A stretch of 58,428 nt of DNA from Asterionella formosa (GCA_002256025.1 NKIB01013397.1:1-58428), one strand, 5' to 3'. Positions 2,637 through 56,671 are shown, counted from the first letter of the stretch. Notes: generated by a model from the sequence alone, not told the origin. Numbers and translations: made by a program.

Positions 2637-3170
2637 ATCGCTGACTACCGACTTCAACTTGCTGACTGCTTCTTGTTGCTAACTGCTGACTTGATTTGCT
2701 GAAAATTTGAAAATATTCGCTGACTGCTGACATGCTGTCGCTGACTGCTTACTTTAACATGCTGATGTCAAACAAGCTACTTTGTACATAGGAAGAGACC
2801 GACTACTGGTACCGGTGTACTAATCGTGTCTACTTTTCTTATTAGAATAACGATGGAAATGCATCATCTTTCTGTTGTTGGGATACTAAAAGTGATGCCT
2901 TCTACGTTCATACTATACTATCGGGAGTAACATAGTAAACATACCTGGTACTCCGTACATGATAATAAACTGTGAAATCGACATTGATGCCTAAAAAAAT
3001 TCATTGCTATCTACTTCGTGATATTGCTACCACCATGTACCGGTACTATCATAAAAATGATGACTTCATCTTGCTAACTACTGACTGCTGACTTGATTCG
3101 CTGAAAATTTGAAAAAATCGCTGACTCCTGACTGCTGACATGAAATCGCTGACTGCTGACTTCAAGTTCA
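2637..3170. repeat. Two diverged direct copies (~2637-2770 and ~3060-3170) of a GCTGACT-rich repeat
   Basis: Shared core ACTGCTGACTTGATT(T/C)GCTGAAAATTTGAAAA..TCGCTGACT with many GCTGACT heptamers. Confidence 0.8.
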
Positions 3171-3770
3171 TTTTGACAATAAAACGAGTAACGGCTTAAC
3201 GTCTATAGAAACGACTATTTAAAGAATATCGGAGTGGCACAAAATTTATGGGTTCGAAAATTTTTGGGGTATACCCCTTCCTTTTTCTCGTTCGTGACTC
3301 GATGAAAAGAAAACGAGCAACCTGCACGCTATGTGCGCTGATTACTGGACCTTCCTGGTCTTGTTAACCTAAGGAGTCAGCAGGTTGTGGGTCTGTCGAT
3401 ATTCCCATTGAAGGTCAAGGTACTGAGATACAAACCCTTATACCATACATGGACGAAATTTGGCGGTAATGGGTCACAGCAGTACTTAGCTAAATTTTTA
3501 TCTATAATTGAATAAAATTTTATATACCATTACAATCAAGGATTACCCTGTTTAGTTTTTGCAAAAAGAATTATTCAAATTTTCGCATCCAGATTTAATG
3601 CAAGTATATATATCACAATCACATCCAGCACACAAATGCATTCAGTCACATTAAATGCTGCACCCATCAACACCACTGCACCATTATCATCCTCATGATC
3701 CCTACACCCCTGCCCTTCCACAAGCACAACATCAAGAGGTAGGTCAACATCTGCAAATGAAAAGGTACAT

Positions 3771-3816
3771 GTGGCTGTGGCTGTGGCTGTGGCTGTGGCT
3801 GTGGCTGTGGCTGTGG
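3771..3816. repeat. (GTGGCT)n hexanucleotide microsatellite
   Basis: About 7.5 perfect units upstream of TFIIS. Confidence 0.95.
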
Positions 3817-4020
3817 GTTTCCCTGTGGCTGTCCTCTTGTTCGTATCCACAATCTAATCGCACATCCTACCAGGTACTGGGATACGCACACGCCCAACCA
3901 CTCATCACTCCTCCACTCACTCACTACTTGTGATGCTGCTCACTGCTTGCTTGTTGTGCTCACCTCCCTCAATTCCCTTTGTGTTGCATAACAGCGAATC
4001 CCAACAATTGCTGCAACACA

Positions 4021-5037
4021 ATGGCAACGTCGAAGCGACTCTTGCAGGAGGTTCAAGAACTGAAAGGCTCCTTGTCCAAGGCCCTGAAAGTGATTAGCAG
4101 TGGCACTACTAGTACTAGCAGTACTAGCATTTCTACTAACGGGACGAACAAGGACGACGTGGTTTCGACCGAACAATGCTTGGACATGTTGAAGCGTTTA
4201 GAAGAAGTCCCCATGACTCTTTCCATTCTTACTGAAAGCCTTATAGGAACGGTCGTTTCCAAGTTGAAACACCATGACACGTTGGGTCCATCCGCGAAGT
4301 CCTTGGTGAAAAAGTGGAAGAAACTAGCCAAGGATGAAACCACTGGAAATAGCAGTAGTGCTAGTGCCACTGCCACTACTGCTAAAAGTGCTACTGCTAG
4401 TTCTTCTAAACAACAACAACTACTACAACAAGAAGAAGAAAAGCTATTACAACAACAGCAAGAACAACATTGGGATGAGTTGCCTCCCTTGAGAAAGAAC
4501 ATTTGCATCAAACTTCACCAGTTGTTGACATTGGAACGGACTGCCATGTTGAGTAATGGTATGAATGACACTGCGTTTGATCATCTGACACTATCACGAG
4601 CATCAGAAGTAGAAGCTGCCATTCAAGCAAAGTACACAAATAATAAGAGTGGGTACACGGAAAAGGCAAGATCCTTGTGTTTTAATATTAAGAAAAATTC
4701 GACATTACGACGGAACATTATCATGGGATCGACACCTGCCACTGACTTGGTTACCATGACGAGTGAGCAATTGTCCACTGCTGAAGATGCTGAAGCAAGG
4801 AATGCTGAAATTAGTAGGTTGCAAGAATCACGACGATTGGATTGGGAAACAGCCAATGAAGGAAAGATTAATGAAATGTGTGGAATCAAAGGAGACTTGC
4901 TACGTGCATCACTCTTTACATGTTCACGATGCAAGTCGACAAAGACAACATCGACACAAAAACAAACGAGATCAGCAGATGAACCCATGACTGTTTTTGT
5001 ATTGTGTATAAATTGTGGAAAGAGATGGAAGTGTTAA
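4021..5037 (+). CDS. TFIIS: Transcription elongation factor TFIIS
   Basis: N-terminal TFIIS/LW domain (LTESLIGTVVSKL...AKSLVKKWK), central domain (YTEKARSLCFNIKKN) and Zn ribbon with QTRSADEPMT and CxxC pairs. First ATG is 4021. Confidence 0.96.
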   Translation: MATSKRLLQEVQELKGSLSKALKVISSGTTSTSSTSISTNGTNKDDVVSTEQCLDMLKRLEEVPMTLSILTESLIGTVVSKLKHHDTLGPSAKSLVKKWKKLAKDETTGNSSSASATATTAKSATASSSKQQQLLQQEEEKLLQQQQEQHWDELPPLRKNICIKLHQLLTLERTAMLSNGMNDTAFDHLTLSRASEVEAAIQAKYTNNKSGYTEKARSLCFNIKKNSTLRRNIIMGSTPATDLVTMTSEQLSTAEDAEARNAEISRLQESRRLDWETANEGKINEMCGIKGDLLRASLFTCSRCKSTKTTSTQKQTRSADEPMTVFVLCINCGKRWKC

Positions 5038-8803: not shown

Positions 8804-9143
8804 GATGATGATGAAGTGACTGACTTTGGTCAGTTTTTTTTTCGTGGCTTTCGTTTGGGTCTTCACAATGAGTTTCTTGTGTACAATTTTGTGAGCGACT
8901 ATTTGCTTGATATGTTACTGATATGATATGCCTACTCCTAAAACGTAACCCGCATCCTCAGCTTTTGTTGATGATTATAGCTGTAATAGAGCTACATAAT
9001 TCTTCTTCTTCCCTTGCCTCTGGAAGATCCGATACCTTTCCTTCCTACTAATACCGGTAAAACAACCCAAAATGTGCAGCTGTTCGCACAGTCCGCTCCA
9101 ATTCCTGCCGGTATTTTTGTCATCCATCACGTTGTGACTATTG

Positions 9144-9151
9144 TGACGTCA
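9144..9151. promoter_or_regulatory. TGACGTCA (CRE/aureochrome-box-like) palindrome in the nirB upstream region
   Basis: Perfect TGACGTCA about 340 bp upstream of the nirB ATG. Confidence 0.3.
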
Positions 9152-9684
9152 TGGATGTCTTTTCTGTGACACTGGCGGCAACCTCTCTTCCGGAACCTGG
9201 GCTGTCTTTTGGCCGGCAGAGGAACGAATGCTACCTGGTACCAGTAAAAGAATGCACGCGGCATGTTTACTACCTACAGTAGACTACTCCAGCAATGTTA
9301 CATATTTACCGTAAATTTAGTTACAGTACCTGCTACCAGGTACCTGGTACCAGTAGTAACCATTCCGGCAGCGTGGCTTGGAAGGAAATGTATTCCTCAG
9401 GAGCATAGATCAATGTTCATTGCTGCACAATGAAAAGTAATTGATACTGTAACTATGTAGCTGGTAATATCAGGACTACACTCTCGTTATTCGGTTTGGA
9501 ATACATCCGTTGTTGATTTAGTAGTGGTAGTGAGGCAGTCGGAGTACCAGGTACTGATAACAGCCGGCAGCGAACACATGCAGGACGAACGGCAACTACA
9601 ACAACGACTAATGCCGGTGGAGAACGGAAGTACTTCTTTATGTACATATTCGTCTATTGCTATGTAGATAACAACCGCAATACT

Positions 9685-9815
9685 GGGGAATGCCTTAGTG
9701 GTTAGCACACCCTTCTACGGTGGCGGGTTCGATTCCTGCATTCTCCACCTGTCTTTTTCATGCAGTCCCTAGGGTTTCGGGGGGTGACGAAAGACAGGTC
9801 CGGTCGTATCGTACG
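9685..9815 (+). mobile_element. tRNA-headed SINE-like element, family A, copy 1
   Basis: A-box-like TGCCTTAGTGG, B-box GGTTCGATTCC and acceptor-like pairing GGGGAAT/ATTCTCC, followed by a 10-bp stem ACCTGTCTTT (9747-9756)/AAAGACAGGT (9790-9799). Homologous to 20110-20245. Confidence 0.7.
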
Positions 9816-9918
9816 AATGTAATAGAGTGAAACACGATCAGGATTCCTTCTCCGGCTGTTTGAAAAAAAGTGTAAGGTTTTTCTATTTAAAATGGGATAT
9901 TTCTGTTACGATAAAAAT

Positions 9919-9991
9919 TCTCTGTTAGCTCAGTTGGTAGAGCGCGGGACTGTTAATCCTGAGGCCGTAGGTTCGATCCCTACACAGAGAG
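9919..9991 (+). tRNA. trnN: tRNA-Asn(GTT)
   Basis: Cloverleaf with acceptor TCTCTGT/ACAGAGA, D-arm GCTC..GAGC, anticodon loop CT-GTT-AA, T-arm GTAGG-TTCGATC-CCTAC and a downstream T-run. Confidence 0.97.
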
Positions 9992-10409
9992 CCTCTTTTG
10001 CCCTTTCTTTCTTACTACCGATCGTCACCATTACTGCTTAAACTAACATTTTAATCTGGGGTAAAGATAGCTAAATCTTTAGTTTCAGCAAAGTTACCGC
10101 ACCTTGCTGGTACCAGGTCCTGACACTCCTGTCTTACTTATTATATTCTATGTACACTCAGTACCCCAAGTGGAGCTTGTTGTATTTGAAAGGAGCTTGA
10201 CACCACTTTTGCGAACCTTATTACATACCAGTATTTACTGGTAGTACATACGGTGAATGAGGTACTCCTGTTTTGATGTCAATAAAATTGGGTCGAAACA
10301 TGTGATTAGGTATTAGTATTGGAACCGTATTGTTACCGGCAGTCTATTTGTTCTTTCTTGTACATCACATCTACTATATTCGCTAGATTAAAATGATACT
10401 TGTCTCATC

Positions 10410-19328: not shown

Positions 19329-20036
19329 GATGTTTTTATACTGCAGTGGAGTCCGTGGGAGCGCAATTAGTAGTGATTAGTTCTGGATGGGATAGGAAAG
19401 TGAATACGGTAAGCGCAATGGGGATGAGATCAACTCAAAGCAAGAATGGAAAAGGACAAATCAGGATGATGATTGTCCTTTTTTGTCAAATTTGTGTGAG
19501 TATGATAATTGCGGCGCATCTGTTGATATATACCGATAAAATAATTAAAATAATAACGAAGTAAAGAAGATACATGCAATACACTTCGTGACATTCGTGT
19601 ACTTTGTGCTACGGTACCAGGTAGTAAGTACAACTACCAGGTACCTTGTACCTGGTACCGGAATATCATTGTCACGCCGGTACATATTTAGAGCTAAAAC
19701 ACACCCTGGACTTATAGTATGTACTTGGTATATACTGGACGGCAATGACAATGAGCCATCAATCCCGGGAATTCATAAGGAGTAACCTGATAGATCAGTT
19801 CAAACCCACAAAAGCATTGATACATATTTATAAAGGAATACTATAAATGACGGTGTAATTTTGGGTTGCCAAGACTCAAGCCATCATCGATGCAAATCAC
19901 GATTGCCAGGCAGAAACATCGGATCGTGCCAACGAGCATTATAGCATCATCCATTTGGACATGAATTACCAGGTACCAGTATGCCGGTAATATAATACAG
20001 TTACCTGTACCAGTAGTCCAAAGGTACCTCCTGGTA

Positions 20037-20580
20037 CTCCCTCTGGTTGAAAATAATTGCGTCAAATCGCCAGCACCACTGACATTAACCTTCAAACAGA
20101 CTTCAAAGAAGGGAATGACTTAATTGGTTAGCACACCTCATGAGGTGGCGGGTTCTATTCCTTCATTCTCCATCTGTCTTTCTTTTATGTGGACCCTAGG
20201 ATTCCAGGGGGTGAGGCTGATGGAGAGACAGATCCCCTTGTACTGGTGTACAGAAATATAACACTGGTACTAAATGTGTCTATTCAAGTGGTCACAAGTG
20301 TGATTATTGGAAAGCTTTAATGAACTATAAAAATTTAATTTTAACTCAAACAGAATTCAAACATAACAGCTGGGTTGAATAATGTAGTTCTGACACAAGC
20401 AATAGGTCTGAAATTGAATCCAATTTTGTGATTGTTTGAGCTGTCAAATGAATCCACTAACTCATTGATACCAGGTAACCAGGTACCATGTTAGACGCTT
20501 CCCCCCCCCCCCCCAATCACTGACACTGTTCTGATGCAAAAAGGGCAAAATACAGTATTATCATACATCATAACAGGGAG
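20037..20580. mobile_element. Degenerate Stowaway-like (Tc1/mariner) MITE carrying a SINE insertion; a related left end follows at 20588
   Basis: Left end TA|CTCCCTCTGGTTGAAAATAATTGCGTCAA, degenerate right end ACAGGGAG, and a similar left end TA|CTCCATCTTGTTGAAAATAATTGCGTCAA at 20588. Confidence 0.5.
20108..20345 (+). mobile_element. tRNA-headed SINE-like element, family A, copy 2, with a 16-bp TSD
   Basis: Head homologous to 9685. Flanked by TCAAACAGACTTCAAA (20092-20107) and TCAAACAGAATTCAAA (20346-20361). AT-rich tail. Confidence 0.72.
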
Positions 20581-23900: not shown

Positions 23901-24634
23901 CCCATATAGCATCAGAATATGCCTTGGAGAAGATTAACAGGCAGTGGATATATGCATGCCAGCAAGCTATTTAACATCATCTCATGTATCAGCTAAAGCA
24001 GGTGTACATCCATAATAAATTCTATATCAGTACCAGGTAACTGGTACCTGGTACCGGTTCCAGTAATCCAGCTTTGTACACAGTTTTAGTTGAGCACTAC
24101 GAGTTGTACACTTGCGTTCATTACTGTCGAATAAGGTTGGACAAAAAATGTACAATCCTACCTGTAGTATAGTTTCCTAGTACCTGGTACGCCATGTACA
24201 TACGTTGCGAAAAGAGAGTTAAATATTGCATACAGCTATTTGAATTCCAGAAACTGCAGGAAAGATTGTCGTACCTGGTACCAGAAGGCAAATACATTAC
24301 TACAACAAATCCAAGAGACTTAAAAAGGAAACTGAAATACGTAGACTCGACTTCCTGACATGTACCGGTATTATAATGACATTTATGTCAAATCTATCAT
24401 ACATAGAATACATAATAGTATTGCATCATGACAACGCTGCCACGTCCCCCTACCGGTACCAGGTACGAGCATAAAGGTCCGAGACGAACAACACGACTAC
24501 AAATGCACGTGATCTCTAGAGAAAAGATGGTGTCTGATGCTACTCTATATGGAAATATTTCTGTTGTTCAACAAAACAAAAATTACTGATATTCTCAAAA
24601 ACTTGCCTTAGCATCAAAAAGGTTAATCACGAAA

Positions 24635-25426: not shown

Positions 25427-25460
<34 letters not shown>

Positions 25461-26268: not shown

Positions 26269-27239
26269 ATCTCAGAATGAATACTCGGCGCGCAAGGCAC
26301 AAGGAACGCACCTCAGTATATGAATCAGGAGTCCCTGTCTTTCTTTCGCCGATTGAGCACAGCTGATATTTACTTGAACGAGTAACACAGATAGTAGGTC
26401 TTCTCGTAACCATGCGGGAGGGAGCGTGCCAAGCCTTGACTAGGCCACGACCAAGTGAGGCAACATGATTCTGCAAGGCAAATGTTAATTGTAAGAAAAT
26501 GGAGATCGCAGAACAAGTTCCTTGATTCTTCTACCCAATTTGTATTATTTGTTTTCATTTTTAACCTTTTAAATTTTGTTTTCATTTTTAACCGTTAAAT
26601 AATATTGCGTTTGCCTTTTACCTCCATTCTTGTTTTACTTTACTGTCCCTATTCTTTACAGACAAAGTCATTTATTTACTGTAACAGTCGCAGATAGTCT
26701 ACAATGAATCCAAATAGACCAGCCTGTTGCCTTTAAGTTTGTTTTTAAGTCCGTGGTGGTCTTAAAAGTCACCACCATGGTCGTTTGAAAGTCACTAGCT
26801 TTGTCGTCTTAATTTTTTTTCAGGGGATTAAATCAAGCAGTCATAAGAAAAACATAGGGATTCATTGACAAACATCATCAAAAAATTTGGTCAGAATAGC
26901 AAAATAAGTTTTAGGTTTAAGGTTGCGGCCCTCGGCTTAACCCTAGTTTGGAGAAAACGTCGCTAGGGTTCTAAAAATGGCATGGAACAGGGAGTTTGCT
27001 GCTATGAGTTCCCATCATTCGAGTATCCCTTTGAATATTTGAATTAAATAGGAGTCGGCGCCAGATAGGCAGAGTTCCATTTTAAACAAACAAAAATGAT
27101 ATTTAAACGTTTATATCTGAGTTGCTGCATGTAGACATAATTTTGTTCCACTCCATAACACATACCGGTATATAAATCAGGAGTATGCCTAAATGTATTC
27201 TAATGATATTTTTAATCCGTTTATACCCGCGTAACGGTG

Positions 27240-27720
27240 TACTGGGGTACCTGGTAGTACTTATTTTACCTACCAGGTACCGGTACATTATTGACGAAAT
27301 TCTACCAAAGTAGTCTTTTTCTGTAGGGCTCCGGTAGTGTTCTACTCTGGACAGGTCAATACTGTCCGGTACCAGGTACCCTGGTACCCCTCCCTTGCTT
27401 GACCGTGGTGAAAATATGGTATAGAGAATGGCAAAAATTCCACGTAGTAGTGCTGGGGGTAGAATTCTTTTTCACATTTTGGTAGAATATTCTACCAACG
27501 GACCGATGGAACCCTGCAGTATGCCATGGTATTGTCCAAGAAATTCTACCAGGGGTACCTGGTACCTCGTACTTGAGCACCGGTAGTGGTACCAGTACCT
27601 GGGTAACTGGTACAGTGCTGGTTCTTGTACCTGGTACCCTGGTACCAGGCATGTGTAGATGGTGAGTACTTTTGGGCACGACTCGTACCTGTACCTGTGT
27701 ACCTGGTGCACTGGCTGTCC
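27240..27720. repeat. Dense cluster of TACC(W)GGTA palindromic motifs
   Basis: Many overlapping GGTACC, TACCAGGTA, TACCTGGTA and TACCGGTA units, plus the 16-bp palindrome GGTAGAATATTCTACC at 27481-27496. Confidence 0.9.
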
Positions 27721-28152: not shown

Positions 28153-28712
28153 AATTCAACATTTCAGGTCTCGTAAAAATAATACCAAGTCTACAGAGAA
28201 AATATCATTAAGTGTTCGAAGTAAGCGTTAAAGCATAGCTTAAACCATGCATGGTTGTTTTTAGTACCTCGTACGTATGTAGACTAGATGACTGCCGGTA
28301 CCGGTAGAATATCCGTTAAGCATCATTACATAAATGACCGGAGCAAAACTTGCCACCAACATCAGCCAGATGTATCGATATCATCGTTCGTCCGACGAAA
28401 TATGGACGATGCGACCACCGGTACATGAATACCTCGAGAAGACAAGCAATCCAACAACCAACCGCATCCGTTAAACAACGAATCGCTACTGGCGTCATCG
28501 CGGAACTGACTTCGCTTCAAACCGGTCATGATGGACGACGATCGGCATGGTGAAAGGTGAATTGCCGGATTCCACTTTTCAGGAGACGAACGAAAACGAG
28601 GTGAATTCTAGATATAAATTATTAGAATCTGAATAGTATAAAAATTGGTTTCCTTAAGAAGATTCCTTGCCGATTTCGGCAATCACAGGGCTGGAATACC
28701 GAGGGGCAATTG
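28153..28712 (+). repeat. ~550-bp repeat, inverted copy of 22775-23322
   Basis: Reverse-complement similarity along its length. Confidence 0.9.
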
Positions 28713-30605
28713 GCGTCTGCTGTCTTGCCAAAATGCGAACATATGAAATATACAAAATATATTTTAATGATGGGCAATATCGGACCTTTGGCAATTTTCG
28801 AGGTGAAGATAAGAAATATTCAAAATATATTTTATATGCTGATGAGCAAAAGTAGGCTAAAATTGACATTTTTGCTAAATTTGTGGGCAGTAGGTAAGCG
28901 AATGGTACCCTTCTCGGCGGCTACTTGCCTTCTCGTATTCATGTGCACTCACAGGCAAGAGATCACCTCGGGCGTGTATTGCCTTCAGCAAAATATACCT
29001 ACGCAAGACTCTAAGTCTACGAGAACGTTTTTGCATGTACTAATTCTCTTCCAATTTATGGCGACTGTTAAAAAATCCGATCGGGTCGACTTTTTGGAAG
29101 AGGATTGCTCTACATCTACAAACACACCTTACTCGGTACCGAGATTTAAACAGACACTCACGACGCCCATTACACCCATAAGAGTCTAGCAAGGAGTAGC
29201 ACTCACTCATCCTTCTCCTCGACCTTCTCCCTCTCATTCTTCAACACCTGGCCTTACCATACACCCCAGCATGTCTTCCCATCTACCAAGAATCGTCAAC
29301 CTTGCTGGCTTGCCAATTCTCTCAAATGGGGGGGAATGCTGCTGGATCTAGTCTGCACAGATGCTCACAGCACCAACAGAAGTACCATAACATGGGTTTT
29401 TAATCTATTATTTTACTCTCCCAACAACCAAGGACTTCCTTTGCCAGCATGTACAAGAACCCTACACTATGATGAGAGGGAGGCTGTGTTCTTGGATATC
29501 TTTCTTCTTTTCATCAGCCACTTGTCACTGGAACACCGCAGATAGGGGAGATATGTCCCATGGCATCAGAATAGCAGAAAGGAGAGCTTATTGCATCACA
29601 GAAATCAGGCAAATGAATAGATGAGATACTTCTCCATATTTGTTCAAATTTCAGATTGATTCCACAGCAAACCTGGGAAATCTTGTGACAACCACCATAC
29701 ATTGATTAACAGCTTGATTGAAGGGGAGTAGCAGAGAAATATTACAATGTGCCCCAGGTAAGCAAAGTCATTCAATAGTGAACAGGCACAGTATGGTGGA
29801 AATATGTATGACCAACATGTATTTATGTTGAACAACCCATGCATGGATTTATACTGGGCAGCCAACAGCTACCTGGCTGGTATCTGGTACCTGGTACCAG
29901 AAAGCAGTAAAACCAACAGGGGATGAAATTAATCATGGCACACAATAGTAGAATATTATTTGGTAAATAGTTTCTCTGTGTCCGGCGGCATATGGTATCG
30001 TCGTGATTGTCTCAACAGGTGTTTTATATTTTGCTTGCTATCATGTACAGTTATATTGTTTGATTACCAGGTACCTTTATATACTGTAAACGGTCTGCAT
30101 GTTCGGACAAATATTCGCAATATTCGGACTTTCCCGGAACTCCCTGACATATTTACCGCATTTATGTCATCTCTAGACTACATACAGTATTGCACCTCGA
30201 CTTCCTGACATGTTTTATGACATATATGTCAAGTATAGACTACATGCAATATTGCATCATGTTAACAACTCTGCCACATCGCCCCTGTTTCCATCATGTG
30301 GTATCCGTCATTCAAATGTACCCAAACTGCTTCTAGATGCTATATACTATAAGGAAGCATCAACAGCTGCTACTTAAATAATTATCAGAACTCAAATCGA
30401 AGAACAACACGTATGTAAGCCACAAATATGTAAGGAGAAAGGAAGGAATTAAAAGTAATATCAAGCCTTTAATGTATTGCCGAATTAAAAAGGGCCTTGA
30501 CATTTTTATTAGAACCTGATAACTGTTAAATACCTGGTACCGTATTTCTGTTATTCAACAAAAAAACAGAAATTACTGATTTTCAAAAAAAGGTTAATCA
30601 CGAAA

Positions 30606-31400: not shown

Positions 31401-31434
<34 letters not shown>

Positions 31435-35981: not shown

Positions 35982-36102
35982 AATTACGTAAACAAATTTA
36001 ATACATTACGTGAACTATATTATAGAATTACGTGAACAAAATTATAAGGCAATGTGAACTAAATTACAGAATTAATTGAAGTATTTCAAATAATTACGTG
36101 AA
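35982..36102. repeat. ~22-bp-period degenerate minisatellite (consensus near AATTACGTGAACAAAATTATAG)
   Basis: 5-6 diverged units with a recurring ATTACGTGAA core. Confidence 0.7.
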
Positions 36103-36339
36103 GGTGACGACGTAATATAGTGATGATCAGGAATGCATGCATGATACTTTGATGAAATAATTAACGTGATGTATTCAGATAATATATAGATATATTCAAG
36201 TAAGCATTTTGATGAATTCAACTAATTCATGTGATCCATTCAAAATCAATTAGGCTTATTTACGTGATGGTCACTTCAAGTAATACGCGGCTTAGATGCT
36301 CGTAGGGTGACCCTCTTGCAGCACCTGGGGCGCCACTTA

Positions 36340-36490
36340 TACAGCCAACCTACTTGCGCCACCCAGCCTCGAACATATGTATATTTACAGGCAAGAGACC
36401 ACCTCAGGCGTGTGTTGCATTCAGCAAGTATTCATTGTGCTGCCTGCCGACAAGACCTGTGCTTCCCTAGTTTTGTTAGCGTAGGTGACT
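36340..36490 (-). mobile_element. 5'-truncated SINE-related fragment with the family B core and a different 3' segment
   Basis: 36433-36490 is similar to the reverse complement of 21541-21598. 36387-36427 matches 28951-28991 at 37/41. Confidence 0.65.
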
Positions 36491-37783
36491 ACTGTATACC
36501 TCATTGTCCTGTACCCCCCTATGGTGTTGACACTATGGTTGCTGGTCCCCCTGTACATTTTTCTCGAGGTGGACCCAAACACCCAATAATTTTCTGGTCC
36601 TAGACAAAGTAAGGTGCTATATTTCTTTTTGTCCTCGTAGGCACTATTATATATATTTATTTAGCTATCTCGTTGCGTTCCTTTTGTACATACAAAACAC
36701 AAGAGAAGACAGGTAGTGGCTGTGAGCAGCTGGAGAATCCTTCATCATGTTGTTGCAACCTTGACCATGATGAGAAAACGAATTATCTCCACGAAAATAG
36801 AGAATGACACTTTGCTATTTGCTAGTTCTACAGGATAGCGCACAGAGAGAGTTCTTCACCTCACAAGAATAACTTGACTTCATGTTGTTATTGGCAATCT
36901 CAATTTTCGTTGTCATTATGAGTGTTATTACTTTTCTGTTTCTTGTTTCCCAATGCTAGTAGCAAAGCCAATTAATTCGAAACTTGCACATTAAGTCTTC
37001 AGGATGCCAACAATGTCAGCAACATATCTTGCCAGCACCAACAAAATATCACTCCATTGCTCCCTGTCATGCTACTCAACCTTGTCCTCCTAAAGTTACA
37101 AAGCCACAAACGCCCACATCAACCAGTAATTTTTTCGACGCATCCTGCTCCTCCTCCTGCCGGATATCAGCAGCCTGCACCACCAGCACCAAACCTCTAT
37201 ACATTTTTGATGTGGCTACGGACTACGGGTAAACTTTTTCCCTTGAAATTTCTATGTACTCCTGACGTTGCTCCTTGGTCCCTGCTCAAACCCAAAATTG
37301 GACTGCCGAAAAATCGTCCAATGTGCCCCATATTGCCCATAAATAAAAAATACTTAGAGATACCAAAAATTACTTACTATTCGTAGACACCCACAGTTTT
37401 TCATCGAAAGCAAGACGATAGCTAGGGTGGGGATTGCCTACTTAATAAAATACCCATCATGGATAGTGTCTAAGTAATCGAAGACGACCTCCGACCTCAA
37501 GCAAATTTTGTATCTGCACGCACGCACATCATCAGCCATTCAAATTAGATAATTTTCCGGGTCATGAAGGTGTATACCGGTAGTATAATGTCGTTATATT
37601 CTTTATTTGCTGGTACTATAATATGTAAAAGAACATTGCTCAAGGCAGTTGTCACGTTTCTATGATATTTGTGGCGGACGCGACGCTTGCTCACCTCTGG
37701 CCATCATGATGACATTGAGACCTCTTTGAAGGTTTCCATCCCCCCGCTTTCCTCCACATCACAGCCAAAGACTCTTTCCAATC

Positions 37784-40023: not shown

Positions 40024-41064
40024 TCATTCCATGGGTGCCAAAGAGTTCTGTTTGACATAGTCGTTCAACTCATTTGTCAGTTTTGTTTTCCCCGCGTCAT
40101 CCAAGAAAGAGGCGTCAATGCCATTCTGAGCAAAATGAATCACATCGGCTTGCGTCAATTTCATCGTTGGTTCATCCGCCAATGCTTGATAATTGTCCGT
40201 AATGTATCCACCAAAGTATGCTGGATCGTCACTATTGATCGTCACACACACACCGAGATCCAAAAGTTTCTTAATATTGTGATCCGCCATTTTGGGAAAG
40301 ATACATAAACAAATGTTGGATATGGGGCACATGGTAAGAGGAATTTTTTCACGTTTCAATAGTTGTACCACCTCTGGATCTTCGTAACAACGGACACCAT
40401 GATCCACACGTTGCACCTTCAAGAGTTCAACCGCGCCTCGAACGTAGTCCGCGGGTCCTTCTTCTCCCGCATGTGCTACAGTGTGAAATCCGTGGGCCCG
40501 AGCGGCATCAAATAGCTCCACATACTTTTCTGGATGATTTCCTTGCTCCGTTGAATCCAACCCAACCCCAGATATCTTATCCTTGTGTTGGCACGCCAAT
40601 TCCAACGTACGGAAGGCATCGTCGATAGGCATGTGTCTAACAAAGCACATGAGTAATTTGGAGGACATGTCGAACTGGGTTTTTGCTTGGACGCAAGCTC
40701 TATGAATGCCATTCACCACCACGTCAAAGGCAACGCCTCGATGCAAATGTGGCTGTGGATCGAAAAAGAGTTCGACGTGCCTGACATTGTCGTTTGTATG
40801 GACTCGTTCCAAGTAGGTCCAGGTCAAATCAAAGAAATCCTGTTCTTGAATCAGAACCTCCATGCCTTGGTAGTACAGCTTCAAAAAGTCCCCTAGGTCA
40901 TTAAACTTGTAGGCCGCGTGGATTTCTTCGACCGAATTGTGTTCCAGAGGTACGTTGTTCCGTTCCGCCAGCGCCATGAGCAGCGAGGGCTCCAACGTGC
41001 CCTCAATGTGCAAGTGCAGCTCCACTTTGGGGACGCCCTTGATGAACTCTGCGGAAACCATCAT
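40024..41064 (-). CDS. Adenine deaminase (adenosine-deaminase fold, Aah1/PA0148-like)
   Basis: PKVELHLHIEGTLEP, FLKLYYQG, FFDPQPH, AHAGEEGP, RVDHGVR and INSDDPAYFGG. Confidence 0.92.
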   Translation of the reverse strand: MMVSAEFIKGVPKVELHLHIEGTLEPSLLMALAERNNVPLEHNSVEEIHAAYKFNDLGDFLKLYYQGMEVLIQEQDFFDLTWTYLERVHTNDNVRHVELFFDPQPHLHRGVAFDVVVNGIHRACVQAKTQFDMSSKLLMCFVRHMPIDDAFRTLELACQHKDKISGVGLDSTEQGNHPEKYVELFDAARAHGFHTVAHAGEEGPADYVRGAVELLKVQRVDHGVRCYEDPEVVQLLKREKIPLTMCPISNICLCIFPKMADHNIKKLLDLGVCVTINSDDPAYFGGYITDNYQALADEPTMKLTQADVIHFAQNGIDASFLDDAGKTKLTNELNDYVKQNSLAPME

Positions 41065-41729
41065 TTGGATGTAATAACTAGATGTTCTTTTCGTTAGTCC
41101 TACCGGTAAACCTGGTGGTACTAACTATATAGAACAATAGACTAGTAGCTGCCTGCCCTGCTATGATAACACTAAAGATATGGCACAGGTATCCAATTAG
41201 CAAGTCGTACGTTTGTATCACTGACGAGGTATATTGTTGCTCCGCCTGCAGAACATTTTATTGTGACCAAGACGATGGAAATTCCCTTCTCATCAGCAGC
41301 AGTATACCGGTACGTAAGAATAGTGCTCCGAGAACTGCAACAGCTAGGATTCGTCATCCTCGTCGGATATTTGGATACAAAAATATATCAAGGGAATTTT
41401 AGGTCAACGTAACAGCCCCTTGGTGGTCATTTAATGTTACCGTTGGTATTCCGAACCTAAAATTCAGGAAATGATGAGAATTTTTCCCCGCCTACTTCAG
41501 ACGAATATTAGTAGACTACCGGGACAAGCAAGGATGCAAGACAAAATTAAACTTCCCTTTCAATCCTGGAATTTTAGGTGCTGAAAAAACTAAAAATGAC
41601 TCGATGCTTTCAATATATCCATACTTTTTCTGCTGTGTAAAACAAAACGTATGACGGATTTCGATGGTCCATAGATTGAGGTCTGCCTGTTGGTACGTTA
41701 TGAATTGGATCCACAGTACCACTTTCCTC

Positions 41730-45245: not shown

Positions 45246-46139
45246 TGATGGAAATGCTGTTGTTGGTACTGAGCGATACAATCCCAATGGGTGTTGGTGA
45301 ATCCTGACACTCGATCGTCGTTTGTAAATTGTTTAGGCTATACAGGTATGTATACGGCTAATTTAATGTTTCATGAATATAATTTTTATACATACATTAA
45401 CATTGGTACATCTGCTTCTATGAGGTATGTGCGTCCGGAAAGCGTGTCTTGCAGACCATTTTCACAATTTACGTTGAGCGAGAATGAAATTGCTATGTCA
45501 TTCTAAAAATCAATATTCCGTGCTTCGGTTTGCTCATTGTGCCATTTATTCGTATCTTTGGATATGAGTATATTCATCATTGGAAGGGAGTGTCTCCAAA
45601 ACGAAAATCTAGGATTTTTCCATATACGAGTATATATATAAATGATTCTGTGAGTCGGTTTAGTTTACAAGACTTTTTATTTATTAAAACGACTACTTTT
45701 TCTTACGTGGTCAGACATGAAAATACGGTGCCGTCCTAACGAGAGTTTATCGTCTAAAAGCCAAAATGTATGAGTTGGATGTGCGGAGTACCTGGTACCA
45801 GGCACCGTACATGCATTCTTTGCACAACGTGCGACGAAATGAGACTACCTAATGTGCCTGTGATACCTTGTATGTACAGTTACAAGGTGTAATATAGTTA
45901 CTGCATAGAGTAGAACATACCGGTACGTGGATTTCAACATACATTTTTGATATTATACATTGATACAAGCGAGAGTCTGCCATCCTCACATCATTGTTTC
46001 GAAACAGTGCTGGTTTCATGTCAAGCATTCTTCCGACTTAACAGTGTATTACTTGAATGAATATATAACAACAGCATATTTAAAATGAAAATAAATATGT
46101 TGATATACAAATTAATAATACTTACAACCTCTGGGAGGA

Positions 46140-49090
46140 TGTAACTAAATATACTGCCTGGTAGTTCAAAAGTATGTCACAAATTGTCCATCAAAGAATT
46201 AACGCAAAGGTTATACTTTCCCCAACAAATAGCATCATCGGAGTCCAAACATGCATAGTAGTTAGGAGGGCGAAGCACAGGGTGAGGACAATGTAAATAT
46301 TGGGCGTGAATGGCAGTGTGGTGAGCAGCAGGATGGTGTTTGGTAAAGTAATCTGCATGATTTAAAATGCCCTTTTTCCAATAAATAAATAAATTTCCCT
46401 GGCACACCTGATCATGAACCAAATAGAAACACATGTCCATGGCCTTGGACCATTTTTGGTGCATGATATCATTGGCAATGCCGCTAGCAGTACAATTATC
46501 AGTGACAATAGGAGTGGAGGGTAGAGGATGTACAAGGCGCGATGTCATTAGGAATGATATGGAAGGGGGCGGGTGGGCGTTATCTCGTCTGGGGTAATGG
46601 CCACCCTTAGTGATGGGACATGAGCAGGAGGGAGTGGTAGGGAGTGGTAGGGGTACTGCATTGGGGAGGGTCTCAGACACCAGGGTGATGACTTGTTGAA
46701 GAGCTGCCTGCTTTGTGTCTTGTGGGGAGGGGAGCCACAGGGGAGCGCGGACTGGGGTGTGCTAAAGCATGTGCACCAATATCCTGCAAGCTTGTCGCAA
46801 TGATGTCTGTGGCATCACCCAACCTGGAAATGGTGAGTGCATCATCAGGGATTATTGTTGGGAATTTTTGGGTGGAGCGTAAGATTTGACGTGTTTGGTC
46901 TAAATGGCCCTTAATTTCTGCAATGGAATGATGTGGGGGGTGTTGGCAAAGAGTTGCTAATGTTAATCCAGGAAAATTGATGAGAAAACTATCTGCAAGT
47001 GCCTTTTCAAATGTTGAAAATGCAGGAGAAAACAATGCTGCATGGGCAAATGCCACAAGGTCAGCAGCTTTGGGAGTGCTAATAGCAGATGCAGCAAAAT
47101 ATGTGGGTATGCTTACAGGCGGGAGATTAGGAAGACACATGGATGTTACATGCCATAATCTGGTGGACTCGGAGCGACGGCCTTGGAGAATGCATTGGCT
47201 GGCTAGGAACACAGTCATAAGTGTACGTGTGAATGTGACTTCATATCCGGAGAGTCACGAAGTTGTACAATGGACAATAACGAGCAGTTATGCAATCCAG
47301 GGACAAGGTGCACATGGCGTGCGTGCAGCAAGAAGGAGAATAGGTATATCAAGTTCTGCCTCATGGGTAGAAACTACATGTTCCCCATTGGGAAGTTGAA
47401 TTGTAATAGGGCAGCTGGTAGGTTGTTGATTAACAACAGAGAGGTCGAATGTGGCATAGTTTCCGGAACTACCAGAATCAGTAAGTATTAAGCAATGTGA
47501 CGGGGGGACAAGTGGGCATAGTAGATAAACCAAGATTGGAAGTATCATCTACTATGCCTTCTTGCTCCCCCCCCCCTGGTCAACCACCAGGAGGAGGATT
47601 GGGGTTTCCAGGTAAAGGGGGAGAGAATACATTTTTTGCATAAAAGTGTCGGAAAATGCATAAAACCATCAGTCAGGGGAGTTTGTGATCATTACTGCGA
47701 TGCAAAGTTTTTATTCGCGTAAAGAACAAGCAGTGTATTGTTGAATGGCTGAAAGTATGTCTATAGTAAACTGTCAAATGACCTTATCAAGATTCCATAG
47801 AAATATGGACCACGACAATTAGTGTGTACATGAAACTCACTACAAAATTCACAGAGTTGATCATGATTTTGTTGCATCTTGAAATGTTGTAGTACCCTCT
47901 CCGAGAATACTGTTGCTCAAGTTTTCTCATCTATTTCTACAAAACATAGAAAACCTTATCTATTCAAAGTTATCAAGCTAATCACCGCGGACTCAACACT
48001 GTTGCGTTTTTGGTCATATCTTCAAAACAGAGCAAATGACGACCAAAAACAACTTTCAGCGCCGATTTCTTTTTTTTGTTGTCAATACTAGTGCAAAAAT
48101 TTTTATTATTGACCGATAATCTCGTCTATGTTACTCTGCATACACGTGCGAAATAGGAATTGTTCATTGTCAATATTCGTGAAGATATTCAAACCCATAA
48201 TTTCGTCATGGTCAAGATGGAGTTGCTGTCTCATCGACCCCATACGACTGGCAGCTGTACAAACACACATGGAAGTACTGCCTGGTGGTACCAGGTACCT
48301 GGTACCCAGTATTATGCATACCAAGAAGATAATATTTAACGCAATACATACAGAATCTACAAAGTTTATACGAGGTCTGTTGTATGTATGCTGTGTTCCA
48401 TGTCGAAAACCTAAGTACATCTGATACATTATGCATCCGATTTCTTGACAAAATGTACATTAGTACAATTTTTTAAATTATTTTTCGATTTTCATGTTAC
48501 TAAGTAAAAAGAGTTATTGAAATTTAGTTAGGAAAAGTTTCTATCATTTTAGAAATTAATATTGATTTGCTACAAATTTAGTCAAAAAAGTAATCCCGAA
48601 TTCCCCCGACTAACAACTCAATATGCATTTTCCGACACTTTTATGCAAAAAGTATAATGGACCGGTAAAGGGGTTGGACCAGGAAGACGATTGCGTTGTG
48701 TAGGCCGAGTACCATCACTAAACATGCGTGCACTGGTGCCACCCATGCTTTTTTAGTCTGGCAGTAGCCTGATGTCCTGTGGCAGGATGAGCACATGTAA
48801 CACTAGAGTGTTCATGATTTTTAGTGAGTCCATGCTTCCAACAGTAACCCAGTTGAACATTGTTGTAGGAATACGTAGTGTGGCTGGTGGTAACAGCAGC
48901 AGCAAAGCTGTTGACAGAGGAAGGTTGTCCATCAATACCAGGGATAAGAGAGAACAGAGGGACCCAGAGTGAAGAAAAGCGTGATGGGCACCATGATAGC
49001 CTGCAGTATTGGCTGTTAAGACTCGAAGACATTCCTTTTCATGCCATGCGTGATATGTGAAACAAAGTTGAGCCAAAACGTTCATTGTCG
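46140..49090 (-). mobile_element. Decayed, internally deleted Ty1/Copia (CoDi-like) retrotransposon split by a MITE
   Basis: Gag knuckle YCWKHG..H.S.TC (~48800), protease DSGSSGNY (~47480), pre-integrase HAALFSP...KGHLDQTRQ, and RNase H TDN...SKAMDM...ADYFTKHH. Integrase core and RT are absent. Confidence 0.88.
47630..48652. mobile_element. Non-autonomous TA-flanked TIR element (Tc1/mariner-type) nested in the Copia
   Basis: TTTTTGCATAAAAGTGTCGGAAAATGCATA (~47633-47662) and its inverse (48622-48651). TA at 47628-47629 and 48653-48654. Confidence 0.88.
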
Positions 49091-49119
49091 TGTCGTTTTT
49101 CCTTCTTGTAGCTGTATTT

Positions 49120-51454: not shown

Positions 51455-52317
51455 TGGACCATTGGGATCATCCAATCTCATAATTCCTTAGGACATTGTG
51501 GTTTGTGAAAACCCTCTAATCACTTAACTGCTATTTGAAACTATATTATCACTATTATTTATATTATTCTTGTATATTTATCAACGTTCACTTGTTAGTT
51601 TTTGGTCCCACCCGATTGATTTCCATAAATGACGTGGAGGCATGGCAACATAAAAATTATCTTTCCGTATCTGTGTCAAAACTTCTTGCGGTTTCAGAGA
51701 TTTCCTTGATTCCTGTGGTTTCAAAGCAGGAACAACCAACGCTGCCGAACATATGTTATGAAATTCAACAACGCTCAATTCAGTTGCATCATTGCATAAG
51801 GTGTCTCCTCTTGCAAAAAGCATACTTTTATGAATTTTCATTTCAGTTGAACTTTTCAAGGAACGAATACACGCCAACAAGAGAAGCTTTCCGGAGATCG
51901 GTGTTAATAGCGGATGCGGGAAAGGAAAGGCATACGAAGCCAAAGGAGGAGCTGTAATGAGGACAGAGGAAGTGGAGAAAGAGCAGTGCAGCGGTTGCAG
52001 CAGGGAATGGCAGCAATTGTTGGGAACCGGGTGGTGTTAGTCAATGCGTGGTTGCACTGTCGGTTTGGCGCAACTGTGCACTAAGCGTGGAAAGTCACAA
52101 TGTCGTGGGAGATGAAGGGATGAATAAGAAACAGATATTTTAGCTCTGTTGAGAGGAACCTTGTCATTAACAGAGGTGAGCTACAATATTATGATTTTTC
52201 TATTGCTGTCATTGCAGCATGATTGCCGGTGTACATACATGTACCTAATCTGGTGGTTATACTGGTCCGGTCCATGCTGAGCTTGTGTGGTGTGCGGTAT
52301 ATGGATATTAACACTTA

Positions 52318-53018
52318 GGCCGTTGCTAACCATTGACCCAAACCAAAACCCAAAAACTTATTTTTGGATTGGTTTTGGTTTTGGTCAACTGACGCAAAAA
52401 CGATGCTATCGGTTTTTGGAAAATCCTAAATGTTGTCAACCACCCATCTACTGTGACACAGGATGACAAAACCATTATAAAAAAAGTAAAATATTTCTAT
52501 TAGACTACTCTTACAAATGAAATATTATGATTCCTATTTGGGAAATAGTTAGTTTTCCCCGCAATTTACCGGTAGTGCCGTAAATATCATCCTCGATTGT
52601 TGATTCTGGTGAAATCAGCGATGATTTGTTGTTGTTGTTGTTGTTCTCGCCAGTGTGGCATGGTACCCTGGTACCTGGTACCAGAGTACCGGTACCGTAT
52701 AGCTATTGTTGTATATAGATATGATATACCGTTACCGGCATATGATGCGTCCTATACGTAGTGATTCTGCGACAATATTAATTGGGTTTCTAGTGACTAC
52801 ATTCAAAGTAGTCAATATGGAATCCTACGTTTAGGTAACTTTGGGAAAAAAAACCTAAACGTAATGCGTTTGGGTAACTTATTGGGATATGGGCACGGAA
52901 TCCCCTAAACGTAATGCGTTTGCGTTGGGTTTTTCACTCCCGATAGCATCGTTTTTTTAGGGTTACTGAAACCAAAACACTGTTTGGTTTGCGTTTTGGT
53001 CCACCGTTAGCAACGGCC
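52318..53018. mobile_element. PIF/Harbinger-like MITE (~700 bp)
   Basis: TIRs GGCCGTTGCTAAC/GTTAGCAACGGCC with imperfect extension. Flanks are TTA and TTT (TWA-like TSD). Confidence 0.8.
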
Positions 53019-53762
53019 TTTTGTACTGTAGCTTTGCGAGGTTTCATGACAAGGCTCACAAGTAATGTTGGATGCAAGCATGTACAAGTACCAGTATATA
53101 GGAGCGAATAGGGAGTTAGACGGAGTACCATTCTTGCTATAAATAATTCTATGTACCGGTATGATGAAAATTGAAGAAAGGTCGCTGTGCAGGATTGAAA
53201 ACAATTATGGAATTTGTCAAATGTTGCTGTTCGTTGTTGTGTCTGTTCTCCACGACCAAATCTAGTACCGTATGGACAAATGAAATCATATATTTGATAC
53301 CTAACGGTACCGGTATGTGCTAGCTTACCGGTATATCCGACTTTGTGGGTGATAATAAAAAAATAGAAGGGCTGTCTCGGAGACAAATATTTATGTATCA
53401 TTACTTATGTATGGCTACAGCCATAATGCAATATAAAATTATTATTTATGTTAGGCACAGTACTGGTAGTGGAGTATATAGTTGTTCCAACCGTGATCCA
53501 GAGAAGAGCTTCGTGGAACAATGTCCCCTACCGGTCGTACATCTCTTGTGTTCCTGCGTGAAGTTTGTCCCCGAAAAGCTGTACCAGTGAAATTCGATTC
53601 ACAAATAGACTACCCTGGTACCAGGTACCGGTAAAGAACGGTCCAGGTGCCACCAGGAACAGGATACAACCTCTGGGCGCATTAAGAATTCGGAGTACCA
53701 ATCTATGAGAGGTACAAACTTGTTCAACTTTATGAGAGGTAAAAACTTATTTAACTTTAGGT

Positions 53763-54584
53763 CTATGCTGCCCTAGAGTTGCTCGAACTTTGTGCCTTAG
53801 TCCGCTCTCCCTTTATCTTAATACTCCGTGACGATTTCGAAGAGGCAGTTTTCTGGCTTCGCCTTTCGATTTGCATCCGTAGGTTCCGGGCCTCCTCACG
53901 GGCATTCGAAACGTAGGGGTGGCTTTGGTCCAGTTCCGCCACCTCATAAATCATGAGCGCCTTATTCAACATGACGAGTGCTTCAGGATAATTCATCTTT
54001 CTTCCGTGGCAAATCGCAAGGCGATGAACGGCGAGACCAATTTCAATGGCTTCGTGATTCTTCGTCGATGTTTCAATCCATAGTGCCTTTGTAAAGGAAC
54101 CAATGGCACCGTCGTTGTCTCCAATGAGTTGTCGAGCCAGTCCAATGGTTGAATGGACATAAGCTACAAGCATGGGAGGGAGTTCTGGGCTGAACTGGAG
54201 AACCAGATTTAGAATGTCCACCAGTTCATTTATTTCATCTCTCGTTAGTTCACAGTTGCTGAAATGCTTTTGGGCTGCTAGTCCGTGGAATTGATGCCGA
54301 ATCGTGTCTGCCAGCTCTCGATCTTGGCAGAAATCAGGTGCGGTTTGAGTCAGCAACGCTTCCAGTTTTGTAAGCTGAAGGTCGACGCTGAGCTGCCGCT
54401 GATTGCGCTTATTGAAGGATTCTCCTGCTGAATTCTTGAGGGAGCGTCGAGACGACCGAGGACTGGTAGAAGTCAAATGACGAGAGGATGAGGTGCAGTT
54501 GACAGAAGAAGAGAGAGTCATTTCAGTTAAGGAGGACGAGCTTCGTTGCTTGGATAATGATGAGATGTGTCTGTTACCAAACAT
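53763..54584 (-). CDS. TPR-containing protein (~273 aa)
   Basis: VAYVHSTIGLARQLIGDNDGAIGSFTKAL and AVHRLAICHGRKMNYPEALVMLNKAL...HPYV match TPR pattern. First ATG is 54584. Confidence 0.78.
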   Translation of the reverse strand: MFGNRHISSLSKQRSSSSLTEMTLSSSVNCTSSSRHLTSTSPRSSRRSLKNSAGESFNKRNQRQLSVDLQLTKLEALLTQTAPDFCQDRELADTIRHQFHGLAAQKHFSNCELTRDEINELVDILNLVLQFSPELPPMLVAYVHSTIGLARQLIGDNDGAIGSFTKALWIETSTKNHEAIEIGLAVHRLAICHGRKMNYPEALVMLNKALMIYEVAELDQSHPYVSNAREEARNLRMQIERRSQKTASSKSSRSIKIKGERTKAQSSSNSRAA

Positions 54585-55689
54585 TCTGTATATTTTGTGA
54601 CTGGAATTGCTGGGGAGGAGCAACTATGATTCTTTGCATTGTTGTATAAAGAATGGCGAATACTGCACAGATCGAAGTACTCTGTACCACCTGTACCTCC
54701 ATATGTTTTTGCTTCCGTTATCAACGCACCACCTGGTACATACCTCATTTCACCTTATGTCATAATGATATGTCCTGTTCACAAATTAGAAATCACTTAG
54801 TCTAAATTGTTTGCTGTCATGCAGGAATTGGACGGCATAGTAAGTAGATTCGCTCCTACAAGAGTATTTATCGACCTCGCCCTTCAACGCGAGAACCTTT
54901 GTCAGCAAACGAAAAATGCACAGAGCAATGCCTTTGATAAATATATGTTCCGCGGTAATCCAACAAGGAGTCATGACGGGATATAGCGGTACCTGGTACC
55001 ATACGACGGACAAATTACTAAGCAAAGCTGATGTGTATTGTGTATTTCGGCATGAAAATGTCACAAGCATGTCACAAGCACAAAAGCTGCAAATGACTGG
55101 GTGGGCTGGCGCAATGAAACCAGGACTACCCGGTAGGTAGGTACCGGTGGGTGTGCTGGCCAAGCCATGCATACGTAAGCCCTTGCTTCACAGGAACACC
55201 AATTCACCAACCGGTACTGGTATATACCGGTACCTGGTACCGGTTTTACTCGCAACATATTTCGAGAGCGTAGCCGATAGCCAGAACTGGTAAATTTTCT
55301 ACGTATTCGGCTATAAAACTAAACAGCTGCTCGGGACTCGTTGCAAATCGATGCAATTATTATGCTTTGCACTGTGTGCAGTCTATGAATGAATAGCTAC
55401 TTGGTTTACCAGTATTTACCGGAAGGAACTGCCTGGTTGTAGTACCAGGGTAACTGGTACCTGGTGGCAATTGAACTGACAGTATTTTTTGATCTACGTA
55501 GACTGGGCGCGCTCTGAAAAAAAAATTATTATATCATGTGTATTATAACACAAATCGTTGTACCCAGCACCATAACCCCAAAATTTGTGTTTGTGTTGAT
55601 CAAATTTGGTAAACCTGGTAAGCACCTTGAAACACAAATTTTTACAGTTATAAATAACAGTGCAATATATAAAAAGATGTTTAGGCATG

Positions 55690-56625: not shown

Positions 56626-56671
<46 letters not shown>

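Follow-up and report, generated by a model that had tools for sequence, protein, structure and literature searches.

Chains of short palindromes that meet at TA dinucleotides occupy the non-coding DNA of a stretch of 58,428 nt from Asterionella formosa (GCA_002256025.1 NKIB01013397.1:1-58428). We refer to this stretch, which is probably freshwater diatom DNA, as the window. Each unit holds a short core of the type CC..GG, most often CCGG or CCWGG (W being A or T), between two TA dinucleotides, and neighbouring units share the TA between them. The grammar of these units, their enrichment, their exclusion from coding DNA, their arrival as unit-sized insertions at TA and the fast turnover of the chains can all be read directly from the window, from related metagenome loci and from public reads. 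Taken together, TA phasing, equal mirror forms, nested ends, sharp units and the occurrence of single units within unrelated sequence speak for insertion by a templated process and not for point mutation or selection. As a tentative explanation, somewhat short of probable, we propose that the units are excision footprints of a cut-and-paste transposon that targets TA and has ends of the CCAGG type.

Enrichment of the motif

The most over-represented hexamer of the window is GGTACC, with 50 sites against 9.8 expected from base composition and 34.8 under an order-4 Markov expectation. TACCWGGTA, that is TACCAGGTA or TACCTGGTA, has 31 sites against a mean of 0.19, and TACCGGTA has 19 against 0.23 expected; none of 100 dinucleotide-preserving shuffles reaches either count. 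The k-mer enrichment supposed in an initial annotation of this DNA is thus borne out within the window, and the motif is found at all 13 places where that annotation had located chains (nearest exact starts 9232, 9334, 19613-19659, 24031, 24451, 27246-27646, 29886, 45789, 48287, 52662, 53611, 55225 and 55456). Among words of the form TA-X-TA the excess is confined to CCGG (19), CCTGG (17), CCAGG (14), CCAG (9) and CCCTGG (4), each with an expectation of at most 1.1. Palindromes in general are only mildly in excess (13 with arms of at least 7 nt against about 4-6 in simulations), so the enrichment is specific to the motif. The same GGTA/TACC ends bound a perfect palindrome of 20 nt at 27479-27498, TTGGTAGAATATTCTACCAA, near which ATTCTACC and GGTAGAAT words recur.

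Since the same chains occur in independent public runs, they are not an artefact of assembly, which the initial annotation had named as a possible way for its reading to fail. Parts of the window are present in runs from 14 studies, labelled as algae, freshwater or lake metagenomes, and two other studies (X2, X6) have contigs that span 23781-24645, chains included, and differ from it by 3-5 substitutions and 0 gaps. Many contigs from other loci are joined to window chains through anchors of only 22-23 nt, with 33 different continuations after 29900 in one run, which indicates that chain words are common elsewhere in these samples. A three-unit chain has at least 124 stretches in metagenome contigs and 0 matches in 2.9 million viral contigs.

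For the grammar of the units we also used related metagenome loci. Out of 123 loci, four were dropped as redundant (L017, L044, L098, L104) and 71 with a G+C content of 0.38-0.48 were kept (139.6 kb); 35 loci with G+C above 0.55, mostly consisting of the seed only, were set aside, and 13 of intermediate or very low G+C were left unused. The 71 loci are rich in chains well beyond the seed, as in L040, with 23 TACCWGGTA in 2955 nt, and since their flanks are mutually unrelated, the chains do not belong to a larger repeat. Among the open reading frames (ORFs) of these loci are DUF6824 (three times) and an HA domain, both of which we take to be typical of diatoms. Because the loci were chosen by the motif, their densities are biased upwards and they inform on grammar, not on abundance. 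In L040 (1380-2520) and other related loci of low G+C, chains are embedded in long strand-flipping (GTA)n/(TAC)n runs, for example CTACTAGTAG, and TA-C-TA and TA-G-TA together make up about 25 % of the TA-to-TA words near chains.

Grammar of the units

The parsing into TA-delimited CC..GG units, first proposed from the window alone, holds for the window and the related loci together, where 1109 of 1257 TACCWGG words run into TA. The flanks expected of a footprint, TA on both sides, are found around 19 CCGG and 31 CCWGG cores of the window. Mirror forms are nearly equal in number, the central A:T ratio being 14:17 in the window and 278:250 in the related loci. Near chains in these loci the commonest TA-to-TA words are CCWGG (559), CAG/CTG (95), CCAG/CTGG (89), CCGG (69), CCG/CGG (60) and CCAGGG/CCCTGG (22), together with many single C or G; CC/GG, CCA/TGG and C/G are likewise enriched, and each single-substitution variant of CCWGG occurs about 10 times. 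The units are sharp: perfect and one-mismatch copies of TACCWGGTA number 31:30 in the window (background about 12) and 528:197 in the loci (background about 26), with the mismatches spread evenly over all positions. The flank of a unit continues with CC, completing GGTACC, in 43 of 100 cases in the window and in 642 of 1153 in the loci.

Truncated and extended units are polar. In the related loci CCAG/CTGG outnumbers CAGG/CCTG by 145 to 12 (44 loci versus 2), and CCAGGG/CCCTGG occurs 28 times versus 0 for CCCAGG/CCTGGG. These counts support the view that such units are nested ends of CCAGGG/CCCTGG, as footprints would be. Random deletion or slippage within a run would be symmetric, and the polarity therefore counts for the ends of an element.

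A transposon-free origin could also account for part of this pattern. Units of 6-8 nt based on chance GGTACC sequences might have expanded through slippage, hairpins and misaligned repair into a palindromic micro- or minisatellite, an explanation that we regard as possible if rather doubtful. Arrays with a period of 7 and 2.9-5 copies are called by Tandem Repeats Finder at 9326, 19635, 24030, 29877, 48287 and 52661; adjacent CCWGG units have the same orientation in 125 cases and are inverted in 69; three-unit chains are AA/TT in 76 cases versus AT/TA in 31; (GTA)n and (TAC)n runs lie beside chains in related loci; and no transposon was found in the material searched. Yet head-to-tail direct copies are not the rule. 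Of the 44 core runs in the window, 38 are single units (chance expectation below 1) and 6 are doubles, and this favours footprints, because slippage cannot start single units. Moreover, 36 % of neighbours (69 of 194 pairs) are inverted, the polar variants (145 vs 12; 28 vs 0) are not predicted by slippage, single units stand inserted beside TA in unrelated sequence, and, with the flanks of about 70 loci unrelated, the seeds would need hundreds of independent origins.

Changes between related copies

The chains change much faster than their surroundings, both by single units at TA and by blocks. Reads were compared through a table in which only 12 of 156 insertions or deletions (indels) are visible, so that the cases below are examples and not rates.

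Several of them lie in or near a high-copy repeat present in two inverted copies, A (22774-23322) and B (28153-28711), which are 86 % identical, lack a Pfam match and reach a read depth hundreds of times the single-copy level. The six letters CCGGTG at 28416-28421 of copy B are missing from 6035.5 of 6333.5 (X2), 803.7 of 856 (X6), 695.7 of 708.3 (X7) and 155 of 155 (X13) of the depth of the repeat family. Being absent from more than 90 % of that depth in four runs, they are a derived insertion in copy B. Within the nearby dense cluster a 15-nt indel at 27368, seen in X6 and X13, consists of two units of 7 and 8 nt (GGTACCA + GGTACCCT), and behind 27482 other copies bear four extra letters (TACA), giving TA-CA-TA.

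Two related loci, L049 and L063, provide the sole comparison of whole chain regions. In some 300 nt of ordinary sequence their identity is about 95 %, and their chains differ by at least five indel events. L049 has TA-CAGG-TA where L063 has TA; the chain regions further differ by two blocks, one of 25 nt and one of about 31 nt, seven other letters are replaced by about 33 nt of chain, and a 37-nt stretch is rearranged. Contrary to what would be expected of binding sites, unit positions are thus not conserved, and relatives vary in the copy number of whole units, as is expected of micro- and minisatellites.

Unit-sized indels adjoin TA at 28416-28421, at 28297-28306 and between L049 and L063, in agreement with the phasing that the initial annotation had anticipated. 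Its further claim that chains grow one unit at a time at TA stands for the 6-nt units and for TA-CAGG-TA and does not cover the blocks of 15, 25 and about 31-33 nt, which are what a micro- or minisatellite would produce. Only unit-plus and unit-minus states were seen, and no filled transposon site is present among the 12 of 156 indels shown.

Exclusion from coding DNA and position near gene starts

With all ORFs of at least 150 codons taken as a coding mask (29,419 nt, leaving 29,009 nt), GGTACC has 4 sites inside and 46 outside, TACCWGGTA 1 and 30, and TACCGGTA 4 and 15; other 6-nt palindromes have no such skew. The 15 ORFs with Pfam support or more than 1000 amino acids (about 24 kb) contain 0 of the 100 sites (50 GGTACC, 31 TACCWGGTA and 19 TACCGGTA), which upholds the earlier remark that intact coding sequences are free of chains. 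The few sites within the mask fall into a repeat ORF, ORF extensions upstream of the ATG and an unsupported ORF of 155 amino acids.

This exclusion undoes a resemblance that the initial annotation had drawn to highly iterated palindrome 1 (HIP1). The strong over-representation of a short palindrome containing CCGG or CCWGG would suit a HIP1-like palindrome that is iterated through methylation-linked mismatch repair. But the motif is absent from coding DNA, where the enrichment would have to extend, units enter as 6-7-nt insertions and not as point changes, and one-mismatch neighbours are not depleted in any special pattern. We consider a process of this kind highly improbable.

The units are placed at most about 1.2 kb upstream of a gene start, and nearly every gene start in the window has some, for instance 37 and 241 nt upstream of the ATG of an adenosine deaminase gene and 70 to 720 nt upstream of two kinase copies. 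The exception is repeat-rich DNA downstream of a gene, which carries a dense cluster at 27163-27710 and a few further units. The statement that chains recur in most intergenic gaps therefore applies to gaps facing a gene start; it does not apply to the five convergent (3′-3′) spacers (2.1 kb) or to 32246-37574, a stretch of 5.3 kb with no long supported ORFs and zero units, compared with about 1.7 GGTACC per kb in other non-coding DNA. In the related loci, 99 of the 142 ORF sides nearest to a cluster turn their 5′ end towards it, and ORFs, which make up 46 % of the DNA, contain 7 of 126 clusters. As a test of location these counts are weak, because the longest gaps are also those of the 5′-5′ type. 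Relative to the neighbouring gene, CCAGG and CCTGG are found in a ratio of 121:144, without bias, and this independence of gene direction argues against a signal acting at the transcript level.

The units and chains of the window are the following.

2328..3876: scattered units between the diverging genes 432-1655 (minus) and 3979-5037 (plus); GGTACC at 2328 and 2808, TACCGGTA at 2365 and 3038, TACCWGGTA at 2942 and 3868
9052..10114: between the nitrite reductase (minus) and EHD (plus) genes, units and a chain of 16 nt that forms a perfect palindrome (9334-9349)
19613..20487: seven GGTACC, including the chain 19635-19659, upstream of a 1601-amino-acid ORF (minus)
24031..24465: chains and single units, no more than 600 nt before kinase copy 1 on its upstream side; X2 and X6 contigs are identical here, with 0 gaps
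27163..27710: on the downstream side of kinase copy 1, within repeat-rich DNA, the densest cluster (12 GGTACC); includes the 15-nt (two-unit) polymorphism at 27368 and the 20-nt palindrome 27479-27498
28297..28306: TACCGGTACCGG in repeat copy B versus TACCAGTAT in copy A (22740-23360), a difference of one 6-nt unit (CCGGTA)
28416..28421: derived 6-nt insertion CCGGTG (minus strand) directly after TA, in repeat copy B
29877..30541: upstream of kinase copy 2, the chain 29886-29899 and two single units (30065, 30531)
37575..37582: single TACCGGTA, upstream of the RF3-like gene
41101..41312: two TACCGGTA, 37 and 241 nt upstream of the adenosine deaminase ATG (minus)
45789..45925: CCTGGTACCAGG palindrome and one TACCGGTA, upstream of a 1003-amino-acid ORF (minus)
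48287..48306: 20-nt perfect palindrome GGTACCAGGTACCTGGTACC
52567..52696: TACCGGTA at 52567, and a chain (52661-52696) whose units measure 8, 7 and 6 nt
53154..53633: three TACCGGTA in the unsupported 155-amino-acid ORF and the chain 53611-53633
54988..55461: seven GGTACC between the diverging genes 53763-54623 (minus) and 56247-56954 (plus)

The near-universal upstream placement, with zero units in the convergent spacers or in coding DNA, the orientation of the ORF sides and the scarcity of clusters in ORFs of the related loci, and the palindromic, orientation-independent form of the units would also fit a cis-regulatory motif. Here a dimeric transcription factor or a general promoter factor would bind the half-sites TACC/GGTA at a spacing of 0-1 nt, selection would keep units near gene starts, and local duplication would form the clusters. 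Against this stand the length of the 5′-5′ gaps, the units found within repeat copies and, downstream of a gene, within repeat-rich DNA (27163-28421), and the differences in unit position and number between L049 and L063 despite about 95 % identity outside the chains. Binding sites are usually surrounded by a cloud of weaker sites, whereas here perfect copies equal or exceed one-mismatch copies and all positions are equally intolerant; nor does a binding-site model have a place for truncated forms phased on TA. We therefore think a regulatory origin unlikely.

A model of repeated excision

From these patterns we infer a transposon, its ends, its target preference and its propagation as follows. 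An element would insert at TA, with ends that begin CCAGG(G) and finish (C)CCTGG. Insertion followed by excision would convert TA into TA plus the first or last few letters of the element plus TA. TACCAGGTA and TACCTGGTA would then be the two orientations or ends, TACCGGTA would combine two letters of each end, and the shorter and longer forms would arise likewise. If the preferred target were the TA at the centre of GGTACC, one footprint would turn a single GGTACC into two, spaced 6, 7 or 8 nt apart, and sites would breed sites. With such a target and a CC(W)GG footprint, one could understand why chains form, why their periods are 6, 7 and 8 nt and why the flanks continue with CC. Once two or more units adjoin, slippage or misaligned break repair between self-complementary units could add or remove blocks, which would account for the block changes and for the excess of same-orientation neighbours. 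Selection would purge units from coding DNA, and they would lie where they do either because open DNA near gene starts is preferred or because selection acts elsewhere.

The interpretation as cumulative excision scars, already put forward in the initial annotation, gains from the TA grammar, the A:T balance, the unit indels at TA and the nested ends, and it falls short in that neither an element nor a transposase has come to light. A search for elements with terminal inverted repeats bounded by TA|CC...GG|TA, which that annotation had led one to expect, returned none in the 58 kb of the window or in about 140 kb of related loci. TA-flanked inverted pairs starting with CC are all chain against chain, no TA|CCAGG...CCTGG|TA element was found, and the 148 TACCWGG words that lack the following TA have no common continuation.

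Further results weigh against excision footprints. Transposase families were found in none of the 47 ORFs searched with Pfam out of 77 small ORFs of the window, and in none of the 45 searched out of 62 in the related loci, a sample of about 200 kb in all that is far too small to establish that a transposase is absent. No enrichment is seen for words from Mos1-like internal repeats, AGGTGTAC being present 2 times where about 5 copies are expected. The five-letter footprint exceeds the 2-4 letters quoted for Tc1/mariner elements in PMC6943129. TA-CAG-TA and TA-CTG-TA, with 153 cases in the loci, lie outside the series of prefixes and suffixes, and the polarity is not significant in the window itself (13:8 and 5:1). 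The loci in which it is pronounced were picked by the motif, with densities biased upwards, and a few of them are bacterial. Finally, the same-orientation excess (125 vs 69) and the block indels require a second process of tandem duplication. Joints in the read table at which reads skip part of the window, such as 29815-29903, have no transposon-like ends on inspection.

The same grammar and TA phasing could be written without any mobile element. A domesticated nuclease or transposase, for example, might cut at the TA of GGTACC, and repair would add CC(W)GG plus TA; that no element or transposase was found in about 200 kb would be in keeping with this. No candidate enzyme is at hand for such a process, 200 kb is a small sample of a genome, and the nested ends are most simply read as the ends of a real element, which leaves this possibility distinctly unlikely in our estimation.

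Returning to footprints, a more far-reaching version is one that we put forward with considerable doubt. A TA-cutting transposase, mobile or domesticated, whose CC...GG ends mimic the flanks of GGTACC, could form a self-propagating footprint or writing system. Each cycle of cutting and repair would write a new copy of the target beside the old one, so that the process would be autocatalytic. It could have filled the gene-proximal DNA of a whole diatom group, and the units might have been co-opted as promoter or open-chromatin elements.

Genes and repeats of the window

The window has a G+C content of 42 % and, according to Pfam and ORF analysis, a eukaryotic gene content, with TFIIS, an EHD-type dynamin and a fused NAD(P)H nitrite reductase. 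Further genes code for a PqiA-like protein, an RF3-like GTPase and an adenosine deaminase, and two kinase genes lie in tandem. Among named relatives, that from the diatom Fragilaria crotonensis matches the adenosine deaminase (40024-41064) best, at 57 % identity; the relatives of this enzyme are mostly bacterial (54-59 % identity), plus one diatom and one EukProt entry. The diatom match and the freshwater and lake labels of the runs lead us to regard the window as probable freshwater diatom DNA. The deaminase gene is one of several genes of bacterial type in a eukaryotic setting, the others lying at 37730-39889 and 12875-14398, and these genes include those for the RF3-like release factor and the PqiA-like protein.

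The two-exon protein kinase gene is present as a tandem duplicate (24616-26511 and 30587-32489) with 94.7 % identity. Homology between the copies ends about 70 nt upstream of the ATG, and both upstream regions bear chains. As these regions are not homologous, they are independent of each other and cannot be aligned as natural replicates.

Apart from the high-copy repeat, read depth is also high at 21285-21661, 26940-27316 and 27694-29201. At 28904-28906 other repeat copies bear about 36 extra letters in place of one G in the window, where the junction reads GGTACC. A block of 265-280 nt is common to 52317-52581 and to L049 1335-1614 (88-90 % identical, flanks unrelated); it contains a hairpin-like arrangement of CCAAAACC/GGTTTTGG and may be a small mobile element. 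A 76-nt block at 10035-10110 recurs in L009 at 93 %. Rfam and tRNA scans found nothing besides a tRNA-Asn (GTT) gene at 9919-9993, which lies among units in the promoter gap that separates the diverging genes for nitrite reductase and EHD. At 56481-56688 about 35 copies of a CAGCAA/CAACAA repeat of the polyglutamine type lie within an ORF, and CAACAA and CAGCAG are among the commonest hexamers of the window.

Significance and comparison with known systems

If the units are footprints, this would be one of the rare genomes of which a visible share consists of scars left by a cut-and-paste transposon and not of its copies, with about 100 sites per 29 kb of non-coding DNA here. The units would record a history of transposition, make DNA at gene starts hypermutable and show how a target site can multiply itself. 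If no transposon exists, the chains would reveal a new mutational or DNA-writing process in an ecologically important group of algae. Either way, the motif offers a ready metagenome marker for the lineage and is a candidate promoter-proximal element.

No relevant earlier description of the chain sequences was found in the searchable literature, though an earlier account in subscription papers or supplements cannot be excluded. A string search, whose reach ends at such papers and supplements, found no paper with the two-unit chains GGTACCTGGTACC and GGTACCAGGTACC. In the literature searched, CCTGGTACC and CCAGGTACC had no relevant link to diatoms, and ACCAGGT, ACCTGGT and AGGTACC had no match in combination with microsatellite. 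Mariner-like elements occur in diatoms. Footprints of such elements in diatoms were not encountered in the literature searched, including the accessible part of PMC10138859.

Among known systems, the footprints of Tc1/mariner elements come closest. PMC6943129 describes them as 2-4 letters from the beginning or the end of the element, with TA on either side; TACAGTA and TACTGTA are the footprints of Sleeping Beauty, and 1-2-bp as well as deleted footprints occur too. Mariner footprints can be irregular, according to PMC3770610, and Table 1 of PMC3419177 gives inverted repeats beginning CCAGGT for the Mos1 tribe. The units described here likewise have TA duplicated on each side, a few inner letters, equal mirror forms and shorter or deleted variants, and the inner CCAGG matches the first five letters of the Mos1-tribe repeats in that table, a resemblance and no more. 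Unlike those footprints, the units have an inner part of 4-6 letters, reach about 1.7 sites per kb of non-coding DNA and concatenate into chains, and no parent element is seen.

Micro- and minisatellites share with the chains short tandem units, variation in unit number between relatives and restriction to non-coding DNA. They differ in that the units here are mostly single, with 36 % of neighbours inverted, mix lengths of 6, 7 and 8 nt while sharing TA, and are seeded at hundreds of unrelated places. HIP1 of cyanobacteria is a short perfect palindrome, hugely over-represented, dispersed, common in coding DNA and not known to form TA-phased chains. The present motif is equally a short, perfect and dispersed palindrome, but it is excluded from coding DNA and arranged in TA-phased chains. 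Repetitive extragenic palindromic (REP) sequences and bacterial interspersed mosaic elements (BIME) are intergenic, clustered palindromic units of alternating orientation, in which REP units are imperfect hairpins of 20-40 nt associated with the RAYT transposase. Intergenic clusters of palindromes are common to these systems and to the chains of the window, whose units, in contrast, are perfect, 8-9 nt long, eukaryotic and joined through a shared TA.

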